A DNA stretch of 64,000 bases from Rhina ancylostomus (lineage: Eukaryota): assembly GCA_030265395.1 (NCBI GenBank), contig JARFYF010000061.1:10507916-10571915 (forward strand). The letters are read 5' to 3'. The notes under the pieces are model-generated. The model saw only the letters and a list, made by a program, of their open reading frames with translations. It was not told the DNA's origin and searched no databases. Of the stretch, positions 47,560-64,000 are shown piece by piece. The number at the start of each line of letters is the position of its first letter. Position 1 is the first letter of the stretch. Position numbers and translations under genes: made by a program.

Positions 47560-48382
47560 ACAGAAAGCGCTGCCTCAAAAAGGCAACACACATCATCAAA
47601 GATCCCCACCATCTAGGCCATGCCATCTTCTAGAAGCTACCATTGGGCAAGAGGTACAGAAGGCTGAAGTCCCACACCACCAGATTCATTCCTTTCAACC
47701 ATCTGGTTCTTCAACTAACCGGCACAACCCTAATCACTACAGTTTAGCAACACTATAATCAGGCACGGTAGTATAGCAGTCAGCATAATGCTTTACAGCA
47801 CCAGTGACCCAGGTTCAGATCTGGTCACTGTCTGTAAGGAGTTTGTACGTTCTCCCCGTGTCTGCGTGGGTTTCCTCTGGGTGCTCCAGTTTCCTCCCAC
47901 ATNNNNNNNNNNNNNNNNNNNNNNNNNNNNNNNNNNNNNNNNNNNNNNNNNNNNNNNNNNNNNNNNNNNNNNNNNNNNNNNNNNNNNNNNNNNNNNNNNN
48001 NNGTGTCTGCGTGGGTTTCCTCTGGGTGCTCCAGTTTCCTCCCACATTCCAAAGACGTACAGGTTAGGAGGTTGTGGGTGTGCTACATTGGTGCTGTAAA
48101 CATGGCAACACTTGCGGGCTGCCCCCAGAACACTACGCAAAAGATGCATTTCACTGTGTGTTTTGATGAACATGTGACTAATAAAGATATCTTATCACTT
48201 AGATCACTTTGACTGAAATAGACTTTTTTTGTTCTTTATGTATAATTTATGTTTAGTTTATGTTTTTCTTGTGATTGTTGTGTCTCTGATGCTATGTACC
48301 TGTGATGTTGCTGCAAGCAAGTTCTTCATTGCACCTGTGCATACATGTACTTGTGCATATGACAATAAACTTGACTTTGATT
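47560..48382 (+). mobile_element. Rex1/Babar-type LINE 3' end, split by a SINE insertion
   Basis: 47565-47687 translates KRCLKKATHIIKDPHHLGHAIF*KLPLGKRYRRLKSHTTRF (Rex1 C-terminus IIKDP.HPGH.LF..LPSGRRYRS...TTRF). The 3' UTR resumes at about 48197 and ends 'tgacaataaacttgactttga'. Confidence 0.82.
47762..48196 (+). mobile_element. tRNA-derived V-SINE/HE1-like SINE (Rex1-like tail), containing a 100-N gap
   Basis: Head 'ggcacggtagtatagcagtcagc..ggttcagatc', V-domain-like 'tgtaaggagtttgtacgttctccccgtgtctgcgtgggtttcctctgggtgctccagtttcctcccacattccaaagacgt', tail 'tttcactgtgtgttttgatgaacatgtgactaataaa'. Confidence 0.85.
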
Positions 48383-51215: not shown

Positions 51216-52324
51216 CTCTTGCATTTTTAATGACATTCAAATTTAATTTTGTACTGTAATTCTTCAACATTGACCATTACAGACAAAACTGAAAGAGTAA
51301 AATACTTTGGTGCTAAGTTGTTGACCCGAAACTTTGTTTCCATTGCCACAGATAATGCAAGATCTGTTAAGATTTTCCAGCACTTTATTGCTTAACGAGC
51401 TGTTCTATCTTGTAGTTATACATCACATCATTTTTAATCTGAGCAGTGTTTTCTTCTGACAAAAGCCAGCTGAAGTCTTGAATAAATTTTACATATATAT
51501 TGTTATTGTTAACAAAATATATCCTATTATAAAACAGCAACACTTGGTATTCAGAAGTAGAGTAAAAAAAACAAAGCACTTACTGATTATTATAAAGCAA
51601 AATTAAGGAGTAAAACTCTCCAGACAGGTAGAGAGGGAGTGTACTGTATTATACCAGTCCTACAATGCCAGCAGCTGAGGGCAATCACATTTAGTTTAAT
51701 TTAGATGTCATTGCCATAAGTAAATAGTTGTTTTTTTTTATTTCAGCTCCATTTTGAGGGCATCTTGCTCAAGCTCAGAAGCCTCCATCTTCACAAATAT
51801 CCAACCGCTATTAATTCAGTGAATCCAACTTTTGTTCCAACAATTCATTTTAAATATAGTTCATACCTCCACTGATAGTACCTTACAGTGAAAAAGATTT
51901 TTTTTCTGGGATTTTCCAATTTGGTAACAGCAGCCAAATTGTGAAGTGAAAAACTGTGGGCACAGGAAATAACAGATCTGCCAGCATTGGAAAGAGATGT
52001 TGGCTGGTACTCCTCATGGGTCCTTCATCTAAACATTATCACATTAATTTTCTCTTTCAGAAGACAATAAATCTGCCCTGAATATTGCACTTTTAAACGT
52101 TATTTTGACTCAACTACAGTATACACTTCCTTTCAGTGTTTTTTAAATGTAAGTTAAGTTCCTTCTACCCTTCTTTAAAATGCTAAGCCTGCTGTGAAAC
52201 ATTTTCTTCTTCACTCAATTACAGTGCTCTTCATCTATGAGCAGGGCCAGTGATTAGTATTAGGATCCCTCTTTATAAAACCAATGGCAACATTCCACAT
52301 TCAGACAAATTACTTCAGCATCAT

Positions 52325-52430
52325 TTTCCTGATGAACGTTTATGGACCTGAAACATTAGCTTCCTTTCTCTCTCCAAAGATGCAAACTGACCCACTGAAC
52401 ATTTCCAGCTGGTTTGGCTTTTACTTCAGC
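52325..52430 (+). mobile_element. Penelope-like terminal remnant with degenerate hammerhead core
   Basis: CTGATGA (52329-52335) ... GAAAC (52350-52354), then 'tctctctccaaagatgcaaactgacccactgaacatttccagc'. Confidence 0.55.
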
Positions 52431-55400
52431 ACAAGACTTCCCTGGTCTGTATGGTACAATGTCACAATGTGACCACATATTCCCAACATAAAGCTTTTCC
52501 TTTTAATTACAGAGTTATCACTATGCAGATCTACATCAGGGGAAAAGATGTCAGGCAATACCTCAAATGTTTACTGAAGTGGCTTTGGCAACATTTGAGA
52601 CACTGGACATCCAAGTTTCACGGTGTCATCTTGTATACGAAACTGGTGGGAAGGTGGATCTCAGTGGAGAACGGGAACTGCTTCGAAATTTACAATGAAA
52701 GCAGGCGGAAAAATCAAAAATCCACAACTCCACATAAAGCCAGGCAGTGCTTAATCACATACTGCTCTGATAAAATTTCACCTTTACCCCTACTTAAGTG
52801 GAGATCATTTAGTCCAGGCCAGAATAATCCTTGGTGAATAAGCACTCCTGGCGCAAGCATTCACCTCTGGCCTGAATCAACTCATTGGACACCTGACATT
52901 CAACCTAACATCCAATTCTCTATCTAAGCTACATTTCAGCTCAGGTCCAAACGGAACCCAGAGAACGACACTTGCACCTCAGTTACGCATCCCACGGATT
53001 AACCCAAATCCACCATTTGATTTGGAACAGTTTTTGATCTCAGACACAATTCTACGTTCGATCTACACCCAATGTCACTTAAAGGTTACAGTAAGGATAT
53101 TTGATCTGCACGGGCCAAGGGTCAAACCTTAATCGCCTATGTGGTTCAGTTGTTGAAAGTCCTACACTAGATACCATTAGGAAAGGCCGTGTTACGGTTA
53201 TTTTCAACATACAAACTCTCCGAATTTCAGTAACAGTAACGTATTTCAATCTGAAGATCTCAATTAGAAACACATTTCAGGTGAAATAAAAGTACCTGGC
53301 TAGAGAGGAATAGTTACCCTTCGAAGGGCAATTCGTAAAAGTGCAAACCACACCCACCAGGCACACGAGCCACAGGTGGGTGAACGAACTCACTGCCAAG
53401 CAGTGGTGAGTTTCCAGGTTGTATAGGGGCAGTGTCCATGGGAATGTGTCAGGCAGTGCTGCTCACACAACTAACTTCCCTGCCTCAGAGAAGTTACGGT
53501 CCCTCATCATGAAAGCCCCTGTACCCGTTCCACAGCATGGGGATAGACGGATGGAAATACTTATAGATTGTTGAAGCTGGGTTTCCAGTAGATTGGAGTT
53601 GGGATAATTAAGAGTCAGGATCGGGATACGAAACCCTGTCAATATTTAGTATGCAGCCCCCGCCCCCACAACATCTCTCAATATGGGTACTTAAGCAGGG
53701 TCTCTGGTCCCGCAGTGAAAAGACTTGCTTGCCTAGTAAGGGATTTTCAGTCCTATAAATGCGGCCGGCTTATGTGGTTCCAGCATTTGTCATTATGCCA
53801 CATATTGGTCTGTTTATTCAAAAGTCAGTTGGCGTACACTTTGAAAACGGAATTTTAAAACTGAATTACCCTAGTGTTTCTCTTCAGTCAGAATTCTCCC
53901 GGTAAAGGGAACGGAACGAATGCCATCAGTACAACGAATGAATGGCAGGTGAGCAGAAAAAGAAATTTTGAATCATTGTCACGATTCAAAATCTTTTTTT
54001 GGGAAGTGGAGTGACTCGGTGTGACCGAATGACCGGGAGAAATCCTGGCCTCTCGCCATTTCCAGGGCAAATTGACCCAGACTCCTGTTGTTTGATGATT
54101 TACGGGTTCCAGCTTCGGTGTCAAATGCTCTATTAAAGATTCCTCCCACCTCCCTGAAAACCCTGTGAATAACTACTTCAAATTTCAACAACAAAAAACT
54201 CCCTGAAATATGTAACCTGCTGACAAATCATTTACATTTCAACTCAATTTTGTACTATCACTTCAGTGAGATGACTTCGTGACACGAATTCCATAGTGGT
54301 GTTCGACCTTTGGGAAAAAAAGTGCTTGAGAACCTTAATGGTTCACTGAGTAAATATTTATATTTATGCATTACATTTTTTATGTAAAATACTTTGTCAT
54401 TTTAAGGTTGTTTGGTCAGCGTTATATTGCAAGAAGGGTGTTTTATATTCTACTTTAATTTAAAGTAAATGAAAACAAAACCTCAAATATATTTGCTTTG
54501 CACAGGCAGCGTGTGTCAATCCCAAATGCCAAATTTCGACTGTAATGGAACGGCGGCGGTGAACTATATTCTTCACTGAACTCGTTAGACATTAGGGGGC
54601 ACTTAGAGTAGGTGGATTTTCGGGCAGGGGCGTTGTGGGGGGGGGGGGAAGAGGGCGAAAGTGAGACAGAGCGAGGACGGCTCGTCGCAAAGTGGACATC
54701 TCATTAGAATTCAGAACCATGTCACAGGCGGGTTTGAATGGGGAGCTCCCAATGTGGTCCGTCTGTGTTGGAAATGGGAGTGAGGGCCCCCGACAGCCCC
54801 CGCCTCCTTCCACGCGAAAATAAAGAAAAGTTAGCGTTATTTCTGCTCCACTTCACCGTTCCTGGATACCTAGAGGCCAACAGCAAACAGCTGCCACCCT
54901 TGCCTGAAAAGTGACCAAATTATCGAGAACTTGACCTCTTAAAGGGGCCAACCTAAAACCCAATCAAAAAGTCTGGAATGCTAATCTGCCTGCACATTCC
55001 GCGCCGGTTGGGTTTTGAGTGTAATCTAATAAAGGAATGTTTAATCTATTTAAGCTAAATGGCTGTCTTTCGCGAACCCCTCGCTTTAAACGATCAATGA
55101 GAACCCTGAGATTTGCACAACAGATTTTAAGACGTCTAGGCAACGTGCTGCCTTGATGTAATGAGATGAAAGCGATTTAACATTTTATTCCTGCATAAAC
55201 TCAACTCTTCTGCTTCGAAATGAGTTCAACTAGCATGACAATTAGCGTTTTAAAAAAATCGGCAATAAGTGTCTGCAATGGGGGAATGAAAGCAAGAGCA
55301 GTTCATCTTATAGAAAGGGAGATTACTCACGTCGCTTCGCGGCCTGTTTTAATGGTATTGTCTCGAGTCGACCTGATGACTGTGACCACGAGTTTTCTTT

Positions 55401-55456
55401 TCTGACTCTTTGCATTTTGGTCATCTTTTGTTCGCTCTTGCTCTCCTCGAAGCTGT

Positions 55457-55545
55457 GGAAGTGGATTCTACTTTCGGTTATCTAGCTTTATGATAGATCA
55501 TCAATACTCATACAGCTAGATAACCAAAGACAGCAGCCAACTTCC
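55457..55545 (-). ncRNA. mir-9: microRNA miR-9 precursor hairpin
   Basis: Minus strand: GGAAGTTGGCTGCTG-TCTTTGGTTATCTAGCTGTATGA (miR-9-5p, 55530-55508)-GTATTGATGATCTATC (loop)-ATAAAGCTAGATAACCGAAAGT (miR-9-3p, 55491-55470)-AGAATCCACTTCC. Both mature arms are identical to vertebrate miR-9 and the basal stem GGAAG.TGG/CCA.CTTCC pairs. Confidence 0.99.
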
Positions 55546-55592
55546 GCTCCACATCTCAGGCGGTGGAACAGGGGTCAAGAAGATTTTTCCAT

Positions 55593-55624
55593 CTGTCATC
55601 AAAGAAGGAAGAGAAAATATCAGC
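55593..55624 (-). promoter_or_regulatory. 3' splice acceptor of a putative miR-9 host exon
   Basis: Minus strand GCTGAT-ATTTTCTCTTCCTTCTTT-GATGACAG|ATGG: branch-point-like CTGAT (A at 55620), pyrimidine tract, AG at 55594-55593. Confidence 0.65.
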
Positions 55625-55815
55625 AGCGAGCAACTGGCGGCTCCTCGCACCTCTCCCTCTGCGAGCTCGACACACTAGGTTCTGCATTTCTACAGGGTCA
55701 GAAGGAAGACGCTTAGCACGAACAGATCTTAACATTTTTTTTGCATTCAATCCATGATCTGACCTGACTCTCCCACAGCCAAGATTGAACGTTCTGTCTC
55801 TCTCACACACCACAC

Positions 55816-55817
<2 letters not shown>

Positions 55818-55859
<42 letters not shown>
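55818..55859. repeat. (AC)21 microsatellite
   Basis: Direct inspection. Confidence 0.95.
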
Positions 55860-55861
<2 letters not shown>

Positions 55862-57427
55862 ACCCACGCACAAGATCCACTGCTATTCACATGCTAATTG
55901 GTCTTTCAGTGGTGACGGAACTACAGCGGCAACCAATCCCTGTCTTGCACCGGCTTTAGTCAAATCACCAAGATTTCCCGCTTTTTTTTGTTGCAGATAT
56001 TACCTCCAATTCAAATTGAGTCTGTCACAATTCACTATCTCAACCCTAGGATCTAAAGGGATGTTCGATTAAAACGATCCCTCCAAAGGTCGCAAGCGAG
56101 ATTGCCCGAAGAAATTCCACAATTCCAACATTAAGAATATATTCCTAACCAATCAGGAGCCAGGGTCCAGTGGTGGGAGATTTCAAATTAAACACGAACC
56201 TTCTTTGAATATTAAATTACGTCCTTTCTCTAATCCAGCTACAGGCACAAGCATTTGTTTTAACTATTTAGGAGTTAATTCTTCAAAAAAAAATTAGCAA
56301 AAACAGATCTCACTTCTAACAGTGGTTACTTGCCGCAGTAAAAATCAAAGTAGATTGACTGTCTCGTGTTCAAGATTGCAAGGAATTAGTCGGGTTCAAA
56401 CCGGTGCTGAATTAGGGCAACGCACGATTATCGTCTTTCTTGCATTTTAAAAAATATATATTTTATTTAATTGCTGCAATTACATCTTATTCGCATGTTT
56501 TATTACTCATAAAATGAAAGTTTCTCGCGAATCTCGGCCGCTCATTTCATTCCTTCTCACGACGTCCCCCCATGGCAGCAAAAAGTTCCAGGATGGGATT
56601 TGCAAATAGACTTCACTGGCAAATGAACAGGCTCATTATACATGGTCTGCAATTAGAGCGCCAGGCTTGGATTCCCTGTAGAATCCCCAGAGCGCAGCTA
56701 TAAAAGAGCTTACTCAAAAATAAAAATCGTCAAACTACAGTATAAGCCACGAGCCATGTACTCGGTATTCATTTTCATCCTGAATAATTAGCGTACATTT
56801 CTGTCACAAAGTAAACCTGGTCCGTTTATTAACCAGGGACAACACCGACCACAATCTAAGCGGAAAGCAGAAAAGTGCATGAAAATGGAAGACAAAATCA
56901 AATGCCTTCAATTCTACCTTATTTGCATATTTCTAGGCTGCATTTTAATAATGAGCTCTACGTCATTTTGGTAAAAATAACCAAACGCACTGACCCCGAT
57001 TCACCCCCAGGATTTTTCTGCTTTTGCCAATAATCTCCGGTTTCCATCAACGTATGGAAACTAAAACCACAATGGGGGTAAATGGGGATAATAAATACAT
57101 AAATCTCTGCCAAAATCTATAGCCCGCATTCAGACAGATGTGAAATTGTTGTTTCAAAATTAATTAATGTGAGAATTAGATATTCCTGTGCACTGCTGTT
57201 AAAGCTAATGTGACGTTTAAAGATGGAAGCGGGAATTTTTTTCTGTTGAAATAGTAATTCGCAAATTAAGGCCATAAATGTACTTTATTAGATTTACAGA
57301 AAATGTTCACGGTTAATAATACGGTTCTGAATATTGGATGGTTGGGGTTAACATGGGATTAGTGATAGAGTGATAGGAATCGCTTAATTTTGTTTCAAGT
57401 CTCGACGACAGCAAATCGTCAAATTAT

Positions 57428-57437
57428 CTAAATATAG
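57428..57437. promoter_or_regulatory. MEF2 consensus site
   Basis: CTAAATATAG fits CTA(A/T)4TAG. It lies next to GGATTA, TGCGTCA and CTTTGT motifs, about 1.9 kb upstream of the hairpin. Confidence 0.35.
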
Positions 57438-57681
57438 GTGAGGGATTAATTGCAAACAACCAGGCTGCTTGCGTCATAGCCTTTGTCAACTCTGTCTCTC
57501 GTCCCGGTCTTAACCTGGCCGAAAGAATTCTTGAACGGTTTAGGATTCTGTATAAACTCATAAATGGAAAAGTAGAGGGGATTTCAGAAATTCGTTTGAT
57601 GTATAGAATTACCATATGCAAATAAGCACCTCGAAATCAAATGCATCTTTGATATTAGCTTTTGATATATATCTATCTTTG

Positions 57682-57685
<4 letters not shown>

Positions 57686-57721
<36 letters not shown>
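57686..57721. repeat. (TA)n microsatellite
   Basis: Direct inspection. Confidence 0.95.
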
Positions 57722-57725
<4 letters not shown>

Positions 57726-58261
57726 AAATGAGAGGAACGGAATAGTTGTTTCAATTTTGTCTGTGCTGCATATATAAATTCAACTTCAGAAGTATATAAC
57801 TTGGTAGATTGATTAATAACCTCATGACATAAGTAACTAAATTTTCAATAGGCATTTCCCACAAGAAATGTATCCAAACATTGCATTTATATACAATGAA
57901 CCAGCTGGAAAGTCAAAGCTCCTTTTGTATTTAAATACATTGGAAAAAAAGAGAAATGAACTCTTTCATTGTCCTTTATCGTTTTTACCACATTTGAGCA
58001 TCTGTCTTAATCTAAAGCAACGCCTCAGTTTAGTTTGGTGACTGGGATTCTAGATTCCCGTATTATAAGAAACTCTACGCCGCAAAAGAATAATAAACAC
58101 GCCCAGGTGTAATCATGGAATAATTTTCCGTGAATCCTGCGCAGCAGCTCTATCACACTGCCAGTACTTAAGTTCTTGAGTCTCTTCATTTTAACTTCAC
58201 TCGTGGAAATACCACAACATTTATAATGGAAATTAAGATAAGCAATGTTGCTGAAATTGAG

Positions 58262-58391
58262 TACTTTTGCATTCTGTATTGTTTTACTTGTACTACCTTA
58301 ATGCACTGTATAATGAATTGATCTGTACGAACAAGACAAGTTTTTCACTGTACCTCGGTACAAGTGACAATAATAAACCAATTCCAATTCC
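58262..58391 (+). mobile_element. 5'-truncated Rex1-type LINE 3' end with 8-bp target-site duplication
   Basis: 'tttttcactgtacctcggtacaagtgacaataataaaccaattccaattcc' terminus, flanked by AAATTGAG at 58254-58261 and 58392-58399. Confidence 0.8.
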
Positions 58392-60739
58392 AAATTGAGG
58401 ATGGCTAAAGAATTTCTCAGTTTTATTTTTGAAGGAAGAGAGAGAAAACTGGAGTAATTCCCCACCCACCTTCCTTAGGTTCAGGCCCCAAAGTGCAAGT
58501 CTTTGAGTTCAGCCATCTAACCCAAATAGTTGTTCCAAAACAAAAGCTTATCTACTCTCGCCTTCAAATCAGTACTTTGGTAATTATTCCAAAAGTAAGT
58601 TTTCTATTTCGAATTTAAGGAATTCAAAAACAATTCGTTACATTAAAAATACGTACAAGAAAGGTGTGACGGATCTCCTCAATGACTCTTTAAACACTCC
58701 AGTATTATCAATTCCAATGCATCCCACAAAATAAACATGGATTATCATCTTGATAAAAAAATTTTTTTTTTCAAATTTGATGATCATTTTATTGGAAAGA
58801 AAAGAATTCTAACAAAATGATCTTTTTTTTTAGAAAGAGTCCATCTGGTTCCTACAATTACTAAAGATATTTTAATATATTCTGCGGATGACGCCCACTG
58901 TTCAAATCCGATTATACTGATTTGTTCCATCGATGTCTAAATCCGAAATCGTTTGCCTCGGATTGTTTGAGACATGGTTTTTAGGAAGGGACGGTTCAAC
59001 AAAACAGATCGCTCCGATTTAAATTTGTTTTAATGATTCGGGCAGGTGGAAATAATTTGAACCGAATCGTCTGGAACTTTTTGATGCAGTTCCCTTGCGT
59101 CGAGACAACGGTCCTGTGGCTATAGGTTAGGATATCCCAGTTACACTTCCTATTGGGTATCTTAACCCAAGTTGTGGAGCCATTTCTGCCTAGAATTGAT
59201 ACACATTGATCTTCTTTAGCAGTGATTGATTTTTAATCAGTTTTGAAGCATAATAAAAACTCAAGTTCTTAAAATCGTGGGCTTTACTGAAATTGGTAAG
59301 AGCTCTCTCAGAAACTCTGCAGTCCCAATGCCTAACCAAGTAACATAGGGTGATTTAACAGATATCAAATAAATAGTCGTTTTCTTTATAGTTTCACCCG
59401 AATATCTCGAAACAGCTGTAAACAACTTTGTTCCAACAAAAAAAATCTAAAGTACGTCATTGAACAGTCAATAAGGGCAAAGCCATGAGATCAGCTGCTA
59501 AAATAAAAGTGTTAGCCTGGATAAACCGGACACCTCATCCATGATCCTTCAAGTTAAACAAATGCACTCTTCCCTGAAGTCAACACCTCTTGAAACAATT
59601 TGTACATCCCGACTCCACCCCCGGGCGACCCCCCCCCCCCCCAAGGTACTGAAGCAGGACACAGATTGATTTTAGATTACTTTGCGTCTCTTCAAAATCA
59701 AAAGAACCGAACAGTGATGTGTTTTCGTAAATTCAAATGAGACTCTGTTGCTCTACAGAAATTAGTATTCGGAATATTTACAGCAGCAGCCTATAAAATA
59801 CAACTTTTAACAAAGAGAAACAATGGCTATTGCAAAGCTAATTTCAGGCAGTTATCTTAATACGTTTTCATTGTTTTTTTAAAGTGCACAGTTGGAATTC
59901 ATTCACTTTTTTCACAATTAGAAGATTCTAGTATGATTTTAAGAAATAATAATTTTTGGTTATTATTTTAAAATCTATTTGAATAGTCAAAGTTTTTATA
60001 AATCTTTGAGAGCCATGTTGAGGTGCCAAATGCTCAGGAATACAGTCGATTAGATACTGAACGGCTGCTTTAAAAATCAAAAATTTCAATGTATTTTTAA
60101 TGCCATTCAGTGCAACGTTTTGCAGAAACAGGCGGATATTAAAATTATTGAGATTTTTATTATAACATTTTCAACGTGGCCTTAATCTTTGTTTTATTTC
60201 GCATTTGTGATTCAATTAATTTAGACGAACAGGGATTTCTTTTTCGGGGGGGGGGGTGTTCTACCATCAAGACTACAAAATCTTTGTGTGTCACGATTCA
60301 CGTGTAACATGGATTTTGAATATAACTTACGGGATTTCTATTTGGAGGATAGAAGTGTATTGGTATGTATAAACTGAGGCAATAACATTAAAAACAGTAG
60401 AATGTTTTTGCATCCGTTGTGAAATATGTGCATTGAACAAAGAGAATAAATGAGAAAACTGTACTGGTATTTTGAAATGCTCTAACATTCTTTTCATGTT
60501 ACTCTCATCAGAGAACATTGCACTGTTTTAGATGAAGTTCATATCACAAAAAATCTGAGGGCCGAGTGTTATGTCAGTCAAATCTGGCATGCCAATTGCA
60601 GAATAATGTCCAATAAAAATGGATTCATTATGCAACATTTGTTTAAGAAGAGCAAAACTCTGATCCCCTCACTCCTTGTCATATCAAGGGCACCTTATTG
60701 TTCAGATAATGAGATGTTTTATTAAACTAATATTCCTTC

Positions 60740-60842
60740 CAATACCATTGTGAACACACTTCAAAAGTACCTCATTGGCTGCAAAGTGCTTTGGGGTGTT
60801 CCGATATCATTAAAGGTGCCATATGAGTGCAAATCGTTCTTT
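60740..60842 (+). mobile_element. Deu-SINE 3' fragment
   Basis: 'acacttcaaaagtacctcattggctgcaaagtgctttggggtgttcc..aaaggtgccatatgagtgcaaatcgttcttt'. Confidence 0.7.
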
Positions 60843-63800
60843 AATAACAGATAGATTTTTAAAACAATATTACACCATTAGATACTCTAAAAAGGCAGTT
60901 ATTATATGAAGTAAATTTATTGGAATTTATTTTTTATGAATGTAATTGGTTTGAAGAAATATATTGTTAGATACATTTTGAGAACTTCTAAATTAACATT
61001 TAGGATAAAAATATATGCCACGCAAAGTGAGTGCATGTTTTAAGAAAATTCGCTTAACTTCTACCGTATGCATATATGTGTAGAGGTACGTGTATGTGCA
61101 CGCATGTAAAAAGCTGCATTTATCTATATAGACATTCGCATTTTGAGGGTACATAATCTTTAAAGACATACAGTTGTATTTGCGTGTGGAGGTGCATATA
61201 TATGAGGGAATATGCATAGAGATAATTCATATTCTTTTGCAGATATATAATCTATATTTATGATATATGCACATATGGATGTCTGTAGGGGTCTATGCAT
61301 ACCATATGTGGTTATGGCATTAGCAAGTCCCTTCTGTTATTGGAATATTTAGAGCAGCAGAGCATTTTAGCAGACCCACGGTCTACAAACCGAGGGTTGA
61401 TGCCAGTAAAATATGTTCTAATATTCTTATCCCCCACTCCCGCCTCTCAAAACAGAACTGTTTGATAAAGAATACTTGTGTCATGTTTCACAGCGTCAGG
61501 TGTTAAAAGGATTAGCGTTCTACGGGGTTAAATGTCATGACGATTGACATCTTCTTAAGATTGACACCAACTACCGCAGCGCGAGCTGAGTTTGCCCAGT
61601 TCCATCTTTGAAAAAAAATAGATAACGTTAATCATTTCCATTGTAGAAGCAGATTGTAGTTGTTGCTTGGTCCAAAATCTGAATCGTAGAACAACAGAAA
61701 CACAGACGCAGGCTCGCTGTCTCATTATCTGAACCAAGAGTGCTGGCCCGGGTGCTGCAATTGCTCTGTTCCTATAAGCAAAGTCTGTTTCCAATTAGTC
61801 TCGGCGAGGTTTTATCATGTTACCTTAACACAACATCTATACTTCNNNNNNNNNNNNNNNNNNNNNNNNNNNNNNNNNNNNNNNNNNNNNNNNNNNNNNN
61901 NNNNNNNNNNNNNNNNNNNNNNNNNNNNNNNNNNNNNNNNNNNNNTTAGCAATTTTATATAATAGGCCTCTCTGCTGCGGTTAAATTGTGAGGAATATCT
62001 CCCAGGTGATCCGTGCACGTAACATGTTCCATGCAATATTCAGTGTGGTGGATGGAAAAATAGTTCAAAGAGATCCATTGCACTCCACCTCAACTTAACA
62101 CGGGCATCTGAAATAAAAATCCTTTTACCCCGGGTTATTGGTTTACAGCAATCCTGACAAGAAATCAGAATTCGCCCCACCCCCAACAAAGTTTGCTAAA
62201 TCCCTGCTATTTCCAAGCAACGAATATTATATATTTGCCCTTGAGTTATTCATATTTATAAATACATCAGGCAGGAGATAATCAGTTCACATAATCACGC
62301 TGAGAAGCAAATACAGTCCCCATTGTACGTACATTACGTCTGACGCACTTTCTTTATAATTATTACAAGTTATTTTTAGTAAAACCTCAAGTAACCCATG
62401 CTTTTAAATGCTCTCAATGATTCTTCTTTTAATTACTGTAATGCGTGCTCTCCATGCTCCCAACAGCTACTAAATGTAAGTAAGGCTTATCAGAAATTGG
62501 CTCAAAAATGGTGGTGTCAGTCAGGATTGTGATAATGTGGCATTTCTTCCATTATTTATAGCTGATACTAACAGGGCCAGTTTACTCCCAACGGCCTCTT
62601 GTTCATCTTAACTTGGCTGAAATGTAAGCAGTACATAACTATCAGTGTCTGACCTGTTCTAATTAACATCCAATTACTCTTTTGCGCCTGTTGTTCTATT
62701 TCAAATCAAATCTTTCACAAAACAAAACATATTTACTTCCCCCTTTACACTTGTATTAGGTTTGATACCTGGAAGCAGTTACAATATTGAAGTATTAACA
62801 TAAGGAATGCAAAACCTTTGCCGCAAGAAAAAGATCAAATCACTTAGAACAATGCAGCTGAAATTAACATGTAACAAACTGGGAGGGGGAACAGAGAACA
62901 AACTAAAATTAGCAATCAAGTAAAGTCGGAATCTAACTCACAGCGTACAATAATCCAAAAGTAATGAATTCCAAACGTAGACTTTAAATTCACCCAGACC
63001 CCAGCAACGCCTTCATCTCCAAGGCCCACAGACACTTATACAAAATTATACCTCGATCAAATTGGCGTCAGGCGAATCCCATCCAGGAATGAATTGACCT
63101 TCCCTACATGGATTTCCTTTCAGGAATTCCGAAGGTGGAACCAGCTGCAAAGAGACGAGTTGGATAAGTTGGAATAATGCGGTCTGCCCGTCTCTTATAA
63201 TGACCACAAGAATGGTCTTTGGAAGGGGCGGGGTGTTGGTGAGTCGGGGTGGGGGTGGTAGTAAGGCCAGGGAAGGTGACTGCCTTCCCATCTTGTGCAC
63301 AGACTTGGCCGTGAACTGCGGCGTCAGCGCCGAGAAGAATAGAGAGCCGCCGATGACCGTGGCCTTGCCCTAATCCCCCTCTTCGCCCCCCTCCCCCACA
63401 GAGTGGAGGGGAAGAAGGGGAGGGAGGGGTGATGAAACAATGAAAAGGTGCCTCACCCGCCTAGTTACCAATAAATAATGACCTCAGGATGGGTCAAGCA
63501 ATAGACACCAAGTTTAACGCCGCTTCCTCGGCCTATTACAGGAACACATGTCCAGTCGCTGCTCTAACTTTAAACCTGCCTGTTTAATGCGAGGTCGCTT
63601 CCCCTCTTTGTCTCAGATTAATCCCTCAAACTTTAGGCGGAAAGCGCATCGATATTTGCACAGAGGACCCGACGAAATGGAAGACTCGGTACCAGCCCGG
63701 CACAGCTCAGCACGGCAGCGAGGATTTCGGTGGAAGCTCGCCTTGCACCAGCAAATGGTGGCTCACAAAATAGAGATCCTATTCCTTGAGGATACTGATG

Positions 63801-63890
63801 GCTATATTTCAAATGCCAGCGATCGTAGGGGATGTGGGGGGTGGTGGGGGGAGGGCTAGCGGGGAGCTTTCTTCGTCCCTCTTGACCTGT

Positions 63891-64000
63891 ACCTACCCGC
63901 CGATGTGAGATCTGCCTCTTGCTCTGCGTGTGAAGTCTCTGGCTGCGTCTTTCCAAATCTCTCCAATCTCTAGCTTCAACCTGCCTCTTGCGCAGCCCCG
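63891..64000 (-). other. Candidate upstream non-coding exon end and 5' splice donor of the miR-9 host transcript
   Basis: Minus strand purine-rich segment ending ...CACATCGGCGG|GTAGGT (GT at 63896-63895), within a CpG island. Confidence 0.35.

Follow-up and report, generated by a model that had tools for sequence, protein, structure and literature searches.

The miR-9 hairpin in the RHCG-POLG interval of Rhina ancylostomus as the probable elasmobranch orthologue of human MIR9-3

The stretch of DNA that we analysed, 64 kb in length and called the window below, carries on its minus strand a miR-9 hairpin which we regard, with a probability of roughly 0.96, as the elasmobranch orthologue of human MIR9-3 (Mir-9-P1). 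It lies in the interval between RHCG and POLG, and Drosha and Dicer probably process it to the standard miR-9-5p; the orthology was read from synteny alone. Synteny was taken as a stronger test than the neighbour-joining precursor clades of PMC5824543, and these clades were left unused. The equation of Mir-9-P1 with MIR9-3 is our own and was drawn from the linkage to POLG, while PMC12594335 and PMC9404528 name Mir-9-P1 without mapping it to a miRBase number. The window miR-9 is thus an expected and ordinary orthologue of a gene already known, and the annotation of one more copy of a well-studied neural microRNA matters little alone. In mammals the neighbourhood of POLG and miR-9-3 has been described as one locus of joint regulation in the nervous system, and here it is intact in an elasmobranch, together with a 26-kb CpG-retaining domain. 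The coordinates of all features are collected in Table 1.

Table 1. Features of the miR-9 locus; plain numbers are positions in the window, and C61 is the contig that contains it.
Feature	Position	Strand	Remark
pri-miR-9 hairpin with basal stem	55457..55545	-	Rfam RF00237, fold z-score, synteny
miR-9-5p arm, 23 nt	55508..55530	-	identical in both other loci of the genome
Terminal loop, 16-nt segment between the arms	55492..55507	-	without apical UGU/GUG
miR-9-3p arm	55469..55491	-	22 nt to 55470; 23 nt to 55469, given a presumed 2-nt Drosha overhang
CNNC motif CTTC	55449..55452	-	17-18 nt past the presumed 3' Drosha cut
Conserved non-coding stretch downstream of the hairpin	55301..55429	.	second, hairpin-less copy in three related organisms
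CpG-retaining domain, start	52001..64000	.	about 26 kb in all; 14 kb beyond the window toward POLG
Treslin/TICRR	C61 10.135 Mb	-	1 of 1 match; two internal stops, probably intron read-through
RH gene (RHCG-like)	C61 10.233-10.241 Mb	+	5 of 15 matches
miR-9	C61 10.563 Mb	-	window hairpin
POLG	C61 from 10.626 Mb	+	4 of 4 matches; PDB E 7.6e-61; 17 aligned pieces in order
FANCI	C61 10.712 Mb	-	2 of 2 matches

The covariance model of the mir-9/mir-79 family (RF00237) matched the minus strand at 55462-55539 with 77.0 bits (E 2.1e-13), well above its gathering score of 58.6 and over its whole length (model positions 1-78), so the hairpin belongs to the family. A further match of 63.9 bits on the plus strand was the same hairpin in reverse; these two were the only Rfam matches across the 64 kb, no other model reaching its gathering score. 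The 141-nt region around the hairpin folded with -51.9 kcal/mol (z -5.12), none of 200 shuffles being equally good, and in this stable fold both the mature arms and the basal stem were paired. The original prediction of a miR-9 gene on the minus strand was therefore borne out by the Rfam score, the fold and the presence of both arms. Its description of a 16-nt loop, a 5' flank ending in GCTGCTG and a paired basal stem also held when the coordinates were re-read from the sequence, the loop between the arms being GTATTGATGATCTATC (16 nt, window 55507-55492, minus strand). The loop and the flanks probably differ from those of the human MIR9-3 precursor. The hairpin had also been called the only gene in the window, which stands for protein-coding genes: 16 stop-to-stop ORFs reach 120 aa or more, none of them resembling a gene, and the 64 kb contain neither a POLG nor an RH exon. 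A non-coding host transcript, however, is likely to be present. Interspersed repeats were seen at 47734-48212 and 58265-58396, one of them SINE-like and one a repeat end common to many places on contig C73. The SINE-like element presumably belongs to a common shark/ray SINE family.

The identity of the paralogue is carried by gene order. On C61 we found, in sequence, TICRR(-), RHCG(+), miR-9(-), POLG(+) and FANCI(-), with MEF2A 6.1 Mb off, and POLG, FANCI and TICRR were each matched at a single place in the genome, the C61 locus. The nine best matches of the first coding POLG exon came from sharks and rays with 74-86% identity, the tenth from an amphibian with 65% (among 120 of the 241 matches), and an RHBG exon gave the same pattern, with sharks and rays best. 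The top PDB match of the C61 RH exon was RHCG with 90.3 bits, compared with 76.2 for RHAG, and RHBG was not among the PDB hits; to elasmobranch RHBG it showed only 60% identity. The sole MEF2 exon on C61 showed identity to MEF2A over 69 aa at the 6.1-Mb distance, the MEF2 paralogue names used here being founded on few residues of a single exon. According to PMC5760859, the human POLG locus holds MIR9-3 in an intron of LINC00925, along with FANCI, RHCG and TICRR. The supplement of PMC8789304 lists both POLG and FANCI under linkage group C of subgenome 1-alpha and assigns Mir-9 P1 to P4 to subgenomes 1-alpha, 2-alpha, 1-beta and 2-beta, respectively. The window hairpin occupies the position of the MIR9-3/Mir-9-P1 group, flanked by POLG, FANCI, RHCG and TICRR and linked to MEF2A, and from these neighbours we therefore assign it as the MIR9-3 orthologue. 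The proposed check of the flanking genes thus returned the MIR9-3 neighbourhood, and of the identities first suggested, that of a diverged chondrichthyan copy was right, as judged from the Rfam match and from the shark and ray matches of the POLG exon. In Torpedo, PMC4597359 gives no miR-9, only miR-99.

The genome contains three miR-9 loci, at C57:32.62 Mb(-), C61:10.56 Mb(-) and C104:95.35 Mb(+). An exact search with the 5p arm, an Rfam search and a search with the 3p arm allowing one mismatch all agreed on this number, although the count comes mainly from the two pattern searches because the Rfam search scored 65 candidates only. Their scores against RF00237 were 83.9, 77.0 and 74.3 bits; the family model is matched over its full length here, yet it is blind to the paralogue. 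The loops of the three loci (16 nt in the window, 15 nt in each of the other two) are all different, and an unfamiliar loop is therefore uninformative on paralogue identity.

On C104 a MEF2 exon (95.20 Mb), miR-9 (95.35 Mb) and TMEM161 (95.67-95.72 Mb) all lie on the plus strand, and the translation of the MEF2 exon equals the MEF2C chain. In PMC5909433, human MIR9-2 has TMEM161B and MEF2C as its neighbours. The C104 miR-9 is of the MIR9-2 type (MEF2C-miR-9-TMEM161), and it is this locus, not the window hairpin, that sits in the MIR9-2/Mir-9-P2 position between MEF2C and TMEM161B. From 55440 to 55545 the window shares 81.6% identity with the C104 paralogue, in an alignment of 103 nt that takes in the basal stem and the 3' flank with its CNNC; this similarity past the hairpin has been conserved between the paralogues ever since the genome duplications. 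On C57, TMEM161 (32.48-32.51 Mb), miR-9 (32.62 Mb) and a MEF2 exon with MEF2B as its best match (32.72 Mb) all lie on the minus strand. The hairpin there (32623665-32623741) has one change near the 3' end of its 3p arm relative to the other two loci, and look-alike contigs were seen in 7 of 8 runs. This locus, with its order TMEM161-miR-9-MEF2B, is of the fourth ohnologue type, absent from humans. We take that class (Mir-9-P4) to be located by TMEM161A and MEF2B, with which the C57 locus is consistent; the slot between these two genes is filled by the C57 locus and not by the window hairpin.

CNNC motifs start 6, 9, 12, 15 (CAGC) and 18 (CTTC) nt past the 22-nt 3p arm, in agreement with the CAGC/CTTC motifs predicted 15-21 nt after that arm. 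PMC6004053 places the CNNC motif 16-18 nt after the 3' cut, and the motif is further sourced from PMC5340965. Only CTTC falls into that range, at +17/+18 from a cut site which we infer, and both paralogue loci carry a CNNC at +18. With five CNNC motifs within 21 nt of the 3p arm, the motif alone is weak evidence of canonical processing. The basal UG and the apical UGU/GUG, which are found in a minor subset of miRNAs, were both absent from the window miR-9; GA occupies positions -14/-13 in all three paralogues, and the window loop begins with GUAU.

The hairpin was compared with contigs from 8 of 24 listed sequencing runs, and in two of the eight (X2 and X9) its orthologue was not seen. Runs X14, X17 and X19 come from three distant relatives with 5-6% of words in common, and in each of them a single orthologous contig covers the whole hairpin. 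These contigs have 6, 14 and 10 other letters, respectively, plus 3-4 gap positions, and none is listed within 55442-55555; the listed positions explain every difference in X14 and X19, and 12 of the 14 in X17. One contig of X3 extends as far as 55525 and shows differences downstream of the hairpin alone, and a separate 36-nt contig of this run covers the loop with one unlisted difference; a contig of X13 covers part of the loop. The X1 contig is not independent because it is identical and possibly of the same source. No difference in the loop is listed for the orthologous contigs of X3, X14, X17 and X19, and it is clear that the 16-nt loop is real and common to the relatives. An unchanged 16-nt loop is no sign of loop-specific selection, being expected about half the time at the roughly 4% divergence of the flanks, and the unchanged 114 nt as a whole are more telling than the loop alone. 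In X14, X17 and X19 we also noticed a second contig that matches the conserved stretch downstream of the hairpin (55301-55429) with 9, 15 and 11 differences, respectively; beyond it these contigs diverge and carry no hairpin. A search of the genome itself gave no second copy of this stretch (1 candidate); the copy in the relatives could stem from the duplication of a conserved element or from an ancient repeat.

A CpG-retaining domain (C61:10.56-10.586 Mb) begins just downstream of the hairpin and extends toward POLG. Inside these roughly 26 kb the observed/expected CpG ratio was 0.46-0.91, compared with mostly 0.05-0.36 outside, at a GC content of only 33-48%, a pattern characteristic of loci of developmental regulators. 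On the model of the human LINC00925/MIR9-3 locus (PMC5760859), the domain likely holds the promoter of a host transcript and enhancers. A candidate RE1/REST-like site lies within the domain at window position 61758(-), about 6 kb upstream of the hairpin; it has 2 mismatches to the core motif, is the sole such site in 154 kb and was given no weight as evidence.

These observations bear on whether the hairpin, though a Mir-9-P1 orthologue, has become silent or poorly processed in this lineage. Having neither the basal UG nor the apical UGU/GUG would fit such a decay, but the arms are intact, 114 nt around the hairpin are without a listed change in relatives whose flanks do differ, and the CpG-retaining domain lies over the locus, and we consider a silent copy very improbable.

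We give equally little credence to an identity with MIR9-1, whose slot (Mir-9-P3) we take to be between RHBG and MEF2D. Such an RHBG-miR-9-MEF2D arrangement is suggested by the RH-family gene 315 kb downstream of the hairpin, and no MEF2D-linked miR-9 was found elsewhere; in the MIR9-1 paralogon, too, the Rh gene is presumably convergent with miR-9. However, the neighbouring RH gene is RHCG-like, exons of RHBG with 86-95% identity to elasmobranch RHBG are on the small contigs C20284, C3695 and C29315, MEF2D is on C73, and the upstream neighbour of the hairpin is POLG and no MEF2 gene. The window hairpin does not have the RHBG-MEF2D position, and MIR9-1 was rejected as its identity. Among other Rh sequences, we noticed at C36:22.71 Mb an ORF for an ammonium transporter of the Rh family, which lacks introns and measures 492 codons from stop to stop. 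A reading of this 492-aa ORF as an Amt was rejected, the protein being an Rh protein with 48% identity to RHBG; we assume it is probably Rhp2, known from shark kidney.

As to the MIR9-1 copy itself, blastn and a mismatch scan gave no MEF2D-linked miR-9 remnant in 140 kb, of which 54,013 bases are N. Likewise, in the 300 kb at C73:6540001-6840000, around and after the MEF2D MADS exon and with 86,673 N (29%), neither a blastn match to the hairpin nor an RH exon was detected. RHBG itself is split among several contigs, each 1-3 kb long. The supplement of PMC8789304 lists Mir-9 of subgenomes 1-alpha, 2-alpha and 1-beta for human, 1-alpha, 2-alpha and 2-beta for elephant shark, and all four for coelacanth, and our three-copy complement, in which the types P1, P2 and P4 were found but not P3, agrees with the elephant shark row. 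The absence of a P3 type beside MEF2D may reflect a chondrichthyan loss of MIR9-1/P3 shared by both or an assembly gap, and GC-rich small chromosomes may be poorly assembled in both species; the match with the elephant shark complement hints at an early loss of MIR9-1 in cartilaginous fishes. The C104-type paralogue, though existent, was seen in none of the 8 runs, probably because a filter removes records resembling human sequence, so contigs of this kind are no test of such a loss. At the level of titles and abstracts we found no report of it, and supplements may cover it. A wider scenario, which we offer as speculative and rather doubtful, is that all cartilaginous fishes lost MIR9-1 (P3) and kept P1, P2 and P4, mirroring the loss of P4 in placental mammals, with P1 residing in a POLG regulatory block since the jawed-vertebrate ancestor and its elasmobranch-specific loop held constant through a processing control of its own.

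That the window hairpin is instead the fourth ohnologue Mir-9-P4 (miR-9-4/miR-9b), lost by eutherian mammals and absent from humans, as the original prediction had proposed, has next to no chance of being correct: a fourth class lost in eutherians is real (legend of Fig. 1 of PMC3834235; supplement of PMC8789304) and the loop is unlike those of the other two loci, but the Mir-9-P4 slot between TMEM161 and MEF2B is already taken by the C57 locus, all 16 TMEM161 matches are on C104 or C57 and none on C61, and the adjacent POLG and FANCI belong to 1-alpha, a subgenome of which human keeps its Mir-9, so that synteny refutes the proposal for this locus, which could be rescued only if the assembly were wrong here or if paralogons had exchanged their hairpins.

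For the hairpin as the MIR9-3 orthologue, its action would probably be as follows. A long non-coding host RNA on the minus strand, like LINC00925, would start in the CpG-retaining domain toward POLG, a domain that would have been unmethylated for long and contain the promoter and enhancers. The Microprocessor would free the precursor, with SRSF3 presumably aiding through the CNNC at +17/18, and Dicer would yield miR-9-5p as the guide; the 5p arm is the guide strand of miR-9 in deuterostomes, as stated in PMC3834235. As in other vertebrates, miR-9-5p may then repress targets of the Hes/Her, NR2E1 and ONECUT type, that is, neural-progenitor genes. The product would be the same as that of the other two loci and would form an additive share of one miR-9 pool, in the way that zebrafish miR-9 paralogues feed one additive pool (PMC9641661). 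By analogy, the role in nerve-cell formation is likely the same as that of MIR9-3.

The locus resembles the known systems in several respects. Human MIR9-3 is embedded in LINC00925 (MIR9-3HG) among the same neighbours, POLG, FANCI, RHCG and TICRR, according to PMC5760859, and by Rfam its mature arms are the same as here. As in human, few genes occupy the sequence upstream of POLG where the hairpin lies; its distance from the presumed POLG start is about 63 kb here, and PMC5760859 places the human enhancers 34-55 kb upstream. In the MirGeneDB scheme, Mir-9-P1, including that of Callorhinchus milii, is likewise found among the 1-alpha genes POLG and FANCI (supplement of PMC8789304).
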